The notes beneath the pieces were generated by a model. It was given only the letters and a program-made list of their open reading frames with translations. It did no database searches and had not been told where the DNA came from. A program made the translations under genes and the position numbers. DNA of 64,000 nucleotides from a phage, in NCBI GenBank assembly GCA_024683775.1, contig GCA_024683775.1_4106.1. One strand, given 5' to 3'. Shown here piece by piece: positions 62,202 through 62,352 of this stretch (its first letter is position 1; the number at the start of each line of letters is the position of its first letter).

Positions 62202-62352
62202 GGATTGATTCAGTACTGAATAATAGTACTCCTATATAGAAAGATAGTTCCCCTGGATTGATTCAGTACTGAATAATAGTACTCCTATATAGAAAGATAG
62301 TTCCCCTGGATTGATTCAGTACTGAATAATAGTTCCCCTATATAGAAAGAAA
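62202..62352. repeat. 53-bp direct repeat, 2.8 copies
   Basis: unit GGATTGATTCAGTACTGAATAATAGTACTCCTATATAGAAAGATAGTTCCCCT with period 53; third copy diverged. Confidence 0.8.

Follow-up and report, generated by a model that had tools for sequence, protein, structure and literature searches.

Tandem array at the beginning of the terminal repeat

The subject of this study is a tandem array at positions 62202–62352 of a phage DNA (contig GCA_024683775.1_4106.1 of assembly GCA_024683775.1; its whole stretch of 64,000 nucleotides was analysed and is called the window below). The array lies upstream of a predicted sigma70-type early promoter, designated P1, and the first gene of a long direct terminal repeat. 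The original prediction described it as 2.8 copies of a 53-bp direct repeat, and both Tandem Repeats Finder (TRF) and direct reading of the sequence agree with this description. TRF placed the array at 62201–62350 with a period of 53, 97% matches and 0 indels, and its score of 286 is the highest one in the window. Copies 1 (62202–62254) and 2 (62255–62307) have no base differences, and the partial copy 3 (62308–~62351) contains two base changes, converting AGTACTCC into AGTTCCCC. Such a perfect duplication of 53 bp cannot originate by chance. The palindrome TCAGTACTGA and the motif ATAGTTCCCC, both expected in each copy, were indeed found as exact matches three times each: the former at 62210, 62263 and 62316, that is one per copy, and the latter at 62244, 62297 and 62329. 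Outside the repeat ATAGTTCCCC is also present at 61609 and 62889.

Cutting the sequence at every AGT(A/T)C(T/C) revealed that the 53-mer is compound and consists of three modules, A (13 bp), B (21 bp) and C (19 bp), each of them headed by AGT(A/T)C (Table 1). In the window they follow in the order leader-ABC-ABC-A-hybrid, where the hybrid AGTTCCCCTATATAGAAAG has its head from C and its tail from B. Since the final 10 bases of the leader (GGATTGATTC) match the tail of module C, the first 53-mer starts at 62202. Module A together with its left flank makes up the 14-bp palindrome ATTCAGTACTGAAT; three such palindromes are present in the array, plus two further AGTACT cores. The variant AGTTCCCC of the last copy coincides with the 3′ arm of the hairpin GGGGAATAGTTCCCC located at 62882–62898 in a 5′ untranslated region (5′UTR).

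The array is separated from P1 by an AT-rich stretch (AT content 0.82 at 62340–62379), which holds a degenerate 11-bp copy of the −35 region (AAAGTATTTGTAG versus AAAGTACTTGCA; TRF row with period 11 at 62350–62384). In P1 itself AGTACT and the −35 element TTGCAC (62382–62387) together span 62377–62387, and 32 bp lie between the end of the last array module and this −35 element. Like all other promoters mentioned here, P1 is a sequence prediction; its transcription start would be at about 62416. The hairpin of the P1 cassette is followed by a Shine-Dalgarno sequence and then by the ATG of the first terminal-repeat gene, whose 120-aa product has no Pfam match and no known domain. No credible open reading frame (ORF) was listed between 60373 and 62464. 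As a leftward promoter site is present on one side of the array and P1 on the other, the array falls into a divergent control region of ~330 bp, and the centres of its AGTACT motifs, ~59–165 bp upstream of the AGTACT fused to −35, are at a regulatory distance from predicted P1.

Table 1. Position of the array modules and surrounding features in the window
Feature	Position	Strand	Basis or remark
Physical left terminus of the packaged DNA, where the direct terminal repeat starts	60675	.	record starts of CRJP21 and vB_Ec-M-J
Leftward sigma70-like promoter site, TTGACT-16-TATAAT, 11/12	62048->62021	-	consensus match only
Leader GGATGATTTAGTGGATTGATTC	62190–62211	+	direct reading; module split in 19 genomes
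Module A, copy 1, AGTACTGAATAAT, 13 bp	62212–62224	.	direct reading, module split
Module B, copy 1, AGTACTCCTATATAGAAAGAT, 21 bp	62225–62245	+	direct reading, module split
Module C, copy 1, AGTTCCCCTGGATTGATTC, 19 bp	62246–62264	+	direct reading, module split
Second A+B+C set, identical to the first	62265–62317 (A 62265–62277, B 62278–62298, C 62299–62317)	+	
Third module A, then C/B hybrid module AGTTCCCCTATATAGAAAG	62318–62330, 62331–62349	+	
AT-rich stretch AAAACTATTTTAAAAGTATTTGTAGAA, 27 bp, UP-element-like	62350–62376	+	nearly invariant across relatives
Predicted promoter P1	62377–62409	+	AGTACT fused to −35 (AGTACTTGCAC), 16-nt spacer, −10 TATAAT at 62404–62409
5′UTR hairpin of the P1 cassette, AGCGGGAA-CAC-TTCCCGCT	62423–62441	+	direct reading
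First terminal-repeat gene, 120 aa, phrog_7352, function unknown	62465–62827	+	family searches

The window comes from an Asteriusvirus (121Q/PBECO4-like jumbo coliphages), and the best match of the region is vB_EcoM_CRJP21 (97.8%). Records of several relatives start at the physical genome end, and those of CRJP21 and vB_Ec-M-J both open with 50 nt that coincide with window positions 60675–60724 (50/50). Since the end maps to 60675, the window covers unique sequence of the right part of the genome and then enters the terminal repeat, the array starting 1,527 bp inside the latter. The repeat is direct and about 21 kb long: the record of vB_Ec-M-J annotates it at 1–21525, and for fEgEco12 (97.5% identical) 20,993 bp were obtained by PhageTerm in agreement with restriction digests, performed with enzymes other than ScaI and RsaI (PMC13070987). 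There is no promoter or repeat analysis in the genome papers of fEgEco12 and Sharanji. The array was also supposed to lie immediately upstream of a higher-GC module. However, GC content climbs from 0.34 to 0.41 already at ~61000, near the start of the terminal repeat, so that the array turned out to lie within the higher-GC region, ~1.2–1.5 kb from its beginning, and not on its border; what begins just 3′ of the array is the first gene of this region. A scan of the window for tRNA and tmRNA genes found none.

Variability of the array in related phages

The region was compared in 19 genomes, i.e. in 18 Asteriusvirus genomes and the window, and the arrays were cut between conserved anchors. As a scan of IMG/VR with a 19-mer from the unit gave no matches, the comparative data come from GenBank phage records, and the relatives compared are all plaque-forming isolates. 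The length of the array varies from 54 to 182 bp, and its modules are arranged in at least 10 different orders. Four relatives (ph0011, WPEC5, UB and A4) have a single unit, AB. The order ABC-AB was found in CRJP21, EC.P1, PBECO4, JP4 and phAPEC6, and ABC-ABC-A-hybrid of the window phage is shared by slurp01. JNE01 possesses ABC-AABC-AA-hybrid, TH47 AAAA-hybrid and SHEFM2K A-hybrid-C-AAAB; other variants are present in 121Q, G17, EJP2, CMSTMSU and vB_Ec-M-J. The number of AGTACT cores per array ranges in the relatives from two to seven. Genomes with flanks 96–98% identical to the window already exhibit six architectures; they carry one, two or three 53-mers or independent expansions of the 13-bp module. 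A wider BLAST comparison suggests, by its match lengths, that two units are the commonest state of the array and three a rare one.

This variability is local. In the MAFFT profile the leader region 60681–62200 retains 87–99% identity; only at 62201–62360 does identity drop to 0.11–0.77, with gaps up to 87%, and it recovers at P1. The array is the sole indel hotspot in this conserved non-coding leader of 1.5 kb. Invariant in 19/19 genomes are the presence of an A module, B or hybrid as the last unit, and the distance to −35; the conserved 27-bp AT-rich stretch abuts P1 in all of them as well.

Thus, the array has the features of a variable-number tandem repeat (VNTR), since its copies are arranged head to tail and their number differs while the flanks are conserved. 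It also has features of an operator cluster, namely the distance to a predicted promoter and repeated palindromes suited to a dimeric DNA-binding protein, but neither the number nor the spacing of these sites is conserved among the 19 genomes. Because the flanking 1.5 kb is 87–99% conserved, multimerisation should be ascribed to VNTR-like slippage and not to a conserved design. Multimerisation as a conserved design is therefore not upheld: module number and order vary in close relatives, and comparison of copy number gave 1, 2 or 3 units. On this comparison, the array is a compound VNTR-like element in front of the first predicted early promoter, conservation does not extend to its multimeric state, and the three-copy state of the window is a recent strain-level expansion.

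AGTACT palindrome in the genome

The palindrome TCAGTACTGA is not specific to the 53-bp repeat, and its AGTACT core is spread over the whole window. In these 64 kb AGTACT was found 218 times versus 21.8 expected (a 10-fold excess), CAGTACTG 48 times versus 0.68, and TCAGTACTGA 15 times versus 0.07, or 45 times versus 2.8 if one mismatch at most is allowed. The three most over-represented hexamers of the window are CAGTAC, GTACTG and AGTACT. Sites outside the array can be exemplified by those at 11523, 15485, 26848 and 61055, and by those at 34825, 44669 and 54311. The bases flanking AGTACT are also biased, with C at −1 in 97/218 and G at +1 in 100/218 sites.

With crude gene calls, for which the longest ORFs of at least 50 aa starting from ATG were taken, 168 of the 218 sites are within ORFs and occupy all three frames (83/51/34). 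Per kb there are 3.0 sites in coding DNA, 6.8 in non-coding DNA and 10 in the terminal leader. The dipeptide Ser-Thr is written as AGT-ACT 83 times versus 26.5 expected and Val-Leu as GTA-CTn 77 times versus 32.3, while TAC encodes Tyr in 31 of 35 nAG-Tyr-Tnn contexts versus 12.2 expected. AGTACT is selected at the DNA level through synonymous codon choice. An excess is also present in the Klebsiella phage RaK2, which belongs to another genus and infects another host: 119 sites versus 16.9 expected were counted in 50 kb of its genome (positions 1–50000), which is a 7-fold enrichment. In the E. coli phage ESCO13, on the contrary, AGTACT is depleted (3 versus 16.3). Since ESCO13 multiplies on the same host species, the enrichment is a property of the RaK2-like lineage and not of the host, and its host-driven origin was ruled out.

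In promoters the motif takes two different places. It is fused to −35 in the cassettes of the terminal repeat, and occupies positions −19..−14 in four of the six promoters of the window with a 12/12 consensus (TTGACA-N9-AGTACTG-TATAAT), versus 9.7% in the background. It is also present in terminator stems of minus-strand genes (GCCAGTACT..AGTACTGGC). Judging from these counts, the palindrome of the array represents a selected, lineage-wide motif built into predicted promoters. In the phage literature nothing relevant was found on over-representation of AGTACT, on CAGTACTG/TCAGTACTGA or on GTACTTGCA, and this strong genome-wide signal is apparently undescribed.

Two sites of bacterial regulators were considered and rejected. 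A LexA box could be suspected from its CAGTA/TACTG half-sites, but TACTG-N10-CAGTA needs 18 bp, and adjacent cores are 13 or 40 bp apart. The E. coli SlmA-binding consensus is GTGAGTACTCAC. It shares the AGTACT core within a 12-bp palindrome, but the flanks of the phage motif differ, as G at −1 (27/218) and C at +1 (26/218) are exactly the rarest neighbours of AGTACT.

Cassettes of the terminal repeat and their likeness to known systems

P1 is the first representative of a repeated arrangement. Most small genes of the terminal repeat are preceded by a cassette composed of AAAAGTACTTGCAA, 16 nt, TATAATgttttacatc, a GGGGA...TCCCC hairpin and a Shine-Dalgarno sequence. Three such cassettes are present in the window and 10–11 in each of two 9-kb terminal-repeat loci, and a simple sigma70 scan flags sister promoters at 62842 and 63519. 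P1 has 4–5 upstream AGTACT sites versus 0–3 for the other terminal-repeat promoters. The site at −59 bp from its −35-fused AGTACT is present in 3/3 genomes compared, and in several other cassettes TTCAGTACTGAA is located 23 bp upstream of the −35-fused copy. The promoter/5′UTR hairpin cassette is shared by ESCO13 (Phapecoctavirus, ~150 kb), where 41931–42037 corresponds to 62361–62469 of the window with ~76% identity, and it occurs in related phages as well. The hairpin GAGAGCGGGAACACTTCCCGC is identical in ESCO13, and at the position of AGTACTTGCA of Asteriusviruses the ESCO13 cassette has AGCATTGACA. Such likeness suggests that unrelated phage groups have exchanged early-gene cassettes horizontally.

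The stem-loops of promoter-early stem-loop (PeSL) cassettes lie upstream of the promoter. Termination or attenuation of transcription coming from upstream is ascribed to them, whereas the hairpin of the terminal-repeat cassettes is downstream of −10, in the 5′UTR. In other respects the latter are similar to PeSLs of T4-type phages (Arbiol et al. 2010, PMC2839356; Comeau et al. 2014, PMC4122927): both possess strong sigma70-like promoters with AT-rich sequences upstream, a stem-loop of GGGG...CCCC type and flanking small ORFans, and both offer homology for recombination and module shuffling. The AGTACT overlay of the Asteriusvirus cassettes has no PeSL counterpart. As to the array, it heads the series of terminal-repeat cassettes and its modules resemble their parts, but it does not fit the definition of a PeSL because it contains neither a promoter nor a complete stem-loop. 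There is no promoter-like site within 62202–62352 on either strand, the promoter feature being found in the adjacent P1 cassette, and of the stem-loop only the 3′ arm AGTTCCCC is present, with no partner. Besides, PeSLs are not reported as tandem arrays (the word “tandem” is absent from PMC2839356).

Elsewhere in the window there is a composite element GGGTTGACTTCGGTCAGCCCTTTTTGCTATAAT, present on the plus strand at 17249, 20843, 21622, 24383, 29007 and 29590. It combines a G/C hairpin and a T-run that overlap −35 and the spacer of a TTGACT-18-TATAAT promoter, and this union of promoter and terminator has a close likeness to T4-type PeSLs.

The terminal redundancy of SPO1 and the pre-early region of T5 are banks of early genes in a long terminal repeat, of the same kind as here. 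The RaK2-like phage CBB is comparable too: in all these phages the long direct terminal repeat is full of short genes of unknown function, each behind a strong host-type promoter with a UP-like element. RpoD-like promoters were registered in CBB both in and beside the 22 kb terminal repeat, and the region was called early/host-takeover (PMC5259590). The descriptions of CBB, SPO1 and T5 contain neither a variable array before the first promoter nor a palindrome common to promoters and genome.

Another parallel is provided by promoter-associated contingency repeats of bacteria, in which slippage quickly changes the copy number and thereby alters factor sites or spacing. Classical repeats of this type have units of 1–8 bp and act as on/off switches of expression. 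The array qualifies as a promoter-associated variable tandem repeat, but unlike contingency repeats it has a unit of 53 bp (13+21+19), lies upstream of the UP-like region and leaves the spacing of the core promoter unchanged.

Possible role of the array

On balance, and with modest confidence, we incline to consider the array as a copy-number-variable minisatellite which provides a cluster of sites for an AGTACT-recognising factor modulating predicted P1. The AGT(A/T)C heads shared by all modules serve as microhomologies, by which replication slippage or unequal recombination adds, removes and recombines modules fast, as seen from the comparison of relatives. The functional content of the array would be the CAGTACTG palindrome. 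Since the same palindrome is found at −35 and at −19..−14 and is selected genome-wide, its five copies in the array can be perceived as a cluster of binding sites. The factor in question would be specific to the RaK2-like lineage, and most plausibly it occludes early promoters or modulates them in some other way. As the motif overlaps −35 or the spacer, binding of the factor would most simply hinder access of RNA polymerase and aid early shut-off. By the array the local density of sites at P1 may be raised, with extra units tuning this density without being required for it. From the “operator or enhancer” of the original prediction, the position in the control region and the five palindromes, which are the same as that at −35, can thus be retained, while the multimer, being not conserved, cannot.

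TF1 of SPO1 and p6 of phi29 are genome-wide phage DNA-binding proteins with preferential sites near the ends, which repress early promoters. They may serve as an analogy for the Asteriusvirus factor that we infer, although TF1 and p6 recognise DNA shape or modified bases and not a discrete palindrome of 6–8 bp. A bolder version, which we find rather unlikely, assumes that RaK2-like jumbo phages mark their genome by about three CAGTACTG sites per kb for an undescribed lineage-specific protein or modification system, and that the array is its loading or nucleation site. If so, the array would control the shut-off of host-type early promoters bearing the palindrome or protect the genome end, and its copy number would be a means of rapid tuning of early expression between hosts.

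Several observations weigh against the idea of a site cluster acting on P1. No AGTACT-binding protein is known or was found in this analysis, and P1, together with its start site, is a prediction. In about half of the terminal-repeat promoters the −35-fused AGTACT has no further copy ahead of it, so that such upstream sites are no general requirement. Conservation of the extended palindrome is not strict: in the relatives its second copy is often TGCAGTACTGAA. Compared to the shortest array the others are longer by, for example, 66, 47 or 39 bp, and this disregard of helical phase argues against a precise architecture. The array as a helical-phase spacer was rejected too, because length differences among relatives are not multiples of ~10.5 bp. 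Finally, since 168/218 sites are in ORFs, the main role of AGTACT may be unrelated to promoters.

The main rival, less likely in our estimation, is that the array is neutral debris, that is a slippage-prone scar made of decayed pieces of promoter/5′UTR cassettes and conserved merely by recent common ancestry. Copy number and module order are really unconstrained among close relatives, and cassettes of the PeSL type are documented substrates of recombination (PMC2839356). Similarity was noted between the hybrid module AATAGTTCCCCTATATAGAAAGA and the 3′ half of the 5′UTR of gene 2, AATAGTTCCCCACTATATAAGAGGA, and also between module A and the element TTCAGTACTGAAAACTATTTTTAAAA located directly upstream of −35 in several other cassettes; if both TAAT and the hybrid module are taken out of the upstream region of P1, the same TTCAGTACTGAAAACTATTTTTAAAA is approximately regenerated. 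The 11-bp degenerate duplicate of the −35 region adjoins the array as well. Because the modules so resemble cassette parts, the array looks like their pieces multiplied by slippage at AGT(A/T)C heads. What does not conform to pure decay is that in all 19 genomes, even those with 83–89% identity of flanks, no fewer than two AGTACT-type heads are retained and the last module is the same, its distance to P1 being constant, that P1 is a clear outlier in the number of upstream AGTACT sites, and that the palindrome is under DNA-level selection elsewhere. Since a functional conserved unit would be compatible with near-neutral extra copies, neutral decay and the preferred site cluster partly overlap.

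Other explanations suppose a function of quite another kind. It is very unlikely that the array is a bank of tandem promoters, in each unit of which TGAAT(A/G)AT, for instance, would be the activator box and TATATAG the −10. The unit does contain TGAATAAT and TATATAG, and CBB, which is RaK2-like, has a second promoter class with TGAAACG in place of −35, followed after ~16–17 nt by an (extended) −10 TATAAT (PMC5259590). However, only 9–11 nt separate TGAATAAT from TATATAG, which is short of the CBB spacing, the TGAAAC[GA] sites of the window yield no convincing members of this class, the sigma70 scan gives nothing inside the array, and no ORF or conserved RNA begins between the array and P1. 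A packaging element recognised by terminase is even harder to accept. In its favour, the array belongs to the non-coding leader and is 1.5 kb away from the physical end of the genome, and short repeat arrays are known beside terminal repeats of T7-type phages. But the distance of 1,527 bp from the cut site and the freely varying copy number are not those of a pac element, and the terminus is flanked by another repeat: of the 11 copies of GTAATCA on the plus strand of the window, 5 are at 60496–60756. Highly improbable is an iteron-type replication origin, which could be suspected from direct repeats beside an AT-rich stretch and from the 53-bp period, close to five helical turns. Neither a DnaA box (TTATNCACA or relaxed) nor an IHF consensus was found within ~600 bp, four relatives have a single unit instead of three or more iterons, the adjacent 120-aa protein without a Pfam match is not initiator-like, and for the AT-rich stretch the role of a UP-like region of P1 is a sufficient explanation. 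The proposal of a replication or packaging element has therefore found no support. The least credible reading is that the array encodes a small peptide or structured RNA, as might be supposed from short minus-strand ORFs annotated across it by some depositors and from the DNA fold z-score of −2.6. The number 53 is not divisible by 3, all plus-strand frames contain stops, and minus-strand ORFs differ between relatives because of array indels. The fold signal is as expected of repeated palindromes, with the centroid structure empty. None of the predicted promoters reads into the array, and Rfam is empty for 60300–64000, apart from a single miRNA match at chance level (E ≤ 1).

In itself the array belongs to an ordinary kind of object, being a slippage-driven variable tandem repeat upstream of a promoter. 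It could nevertheless serve as a marker for strain typing of Asteriusvirus phages, and arrays with one, two and three units make up a natural allelic series for studying control of the first early promoter. Its chief value is that of a pointer to the genome-wide CAGTACTG palindrome, which is the more surprising lead: this signal is conserved from E. coli to Klebsiella jumbo phages and is present in two promoter classes. Finding the reader of AGTACT would open the way to the regulation of this phage group, more than 80% of whose genes are without a known function.

Other elements near the array

The terminus and the leader are rich in other short elements. GTAATCA direct repeats surround the terminus at 60675 in the range 60496–60762: those at 60496, 60516 and 60538 are on its left and include a 22-bp TRF array (60496–60551), and those at 60746 and 60756 are on its right. 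They are a candidate recognition signal for terminase. At 61252–61271, ~578 bp away from the left terminus, two E. coli Chi sites in inverted orientation make up a hairpin, CCACCAGC-acaa-GCTGGTGG, which is kept in 15/18 relatives, five of them having the 4-nt loop flipped (ACAA/TTGT). There are four other Chi sites in the whole window. This hairpin may attenuate RecBCD at the entering DNA end. An array with 8-bp periodicity, GGCTAGAC/GGCTAAAC/GGCTGGAT, occupies 61482–61553 of the conserved non-coding leader (TRF periods 8, 16 and 24).

In the ORF-free leader (60681–62200) a perfect consensus promoter was found on the plus strand at 61040–61067 with no ORF downstream, along with two leftward promoter-like sites, at 62048->62021 and at 61707->61679, which suggests conserved non-coding transcripts. 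The sequences AGGGTGCGGGAGTGTATC and GCACCCGGTGGG recur downstream of terminal-repeat promoters, at 61766, 61929, 63920 and 63973, and also at ~5580 of the locus L001. They are partly complementary to each other (GGGTGC/GCACCC), and one copy is followed by a T-run, resembling a terminator at 61929–61955; both may be parts of small RNAs. On the other side of the boundary, about ten tandem paralogous ORFs of 61–77 aa with the start MNxHKEYY... occupy 58411–60372 of the plus strand, directly before the terminal repeat.

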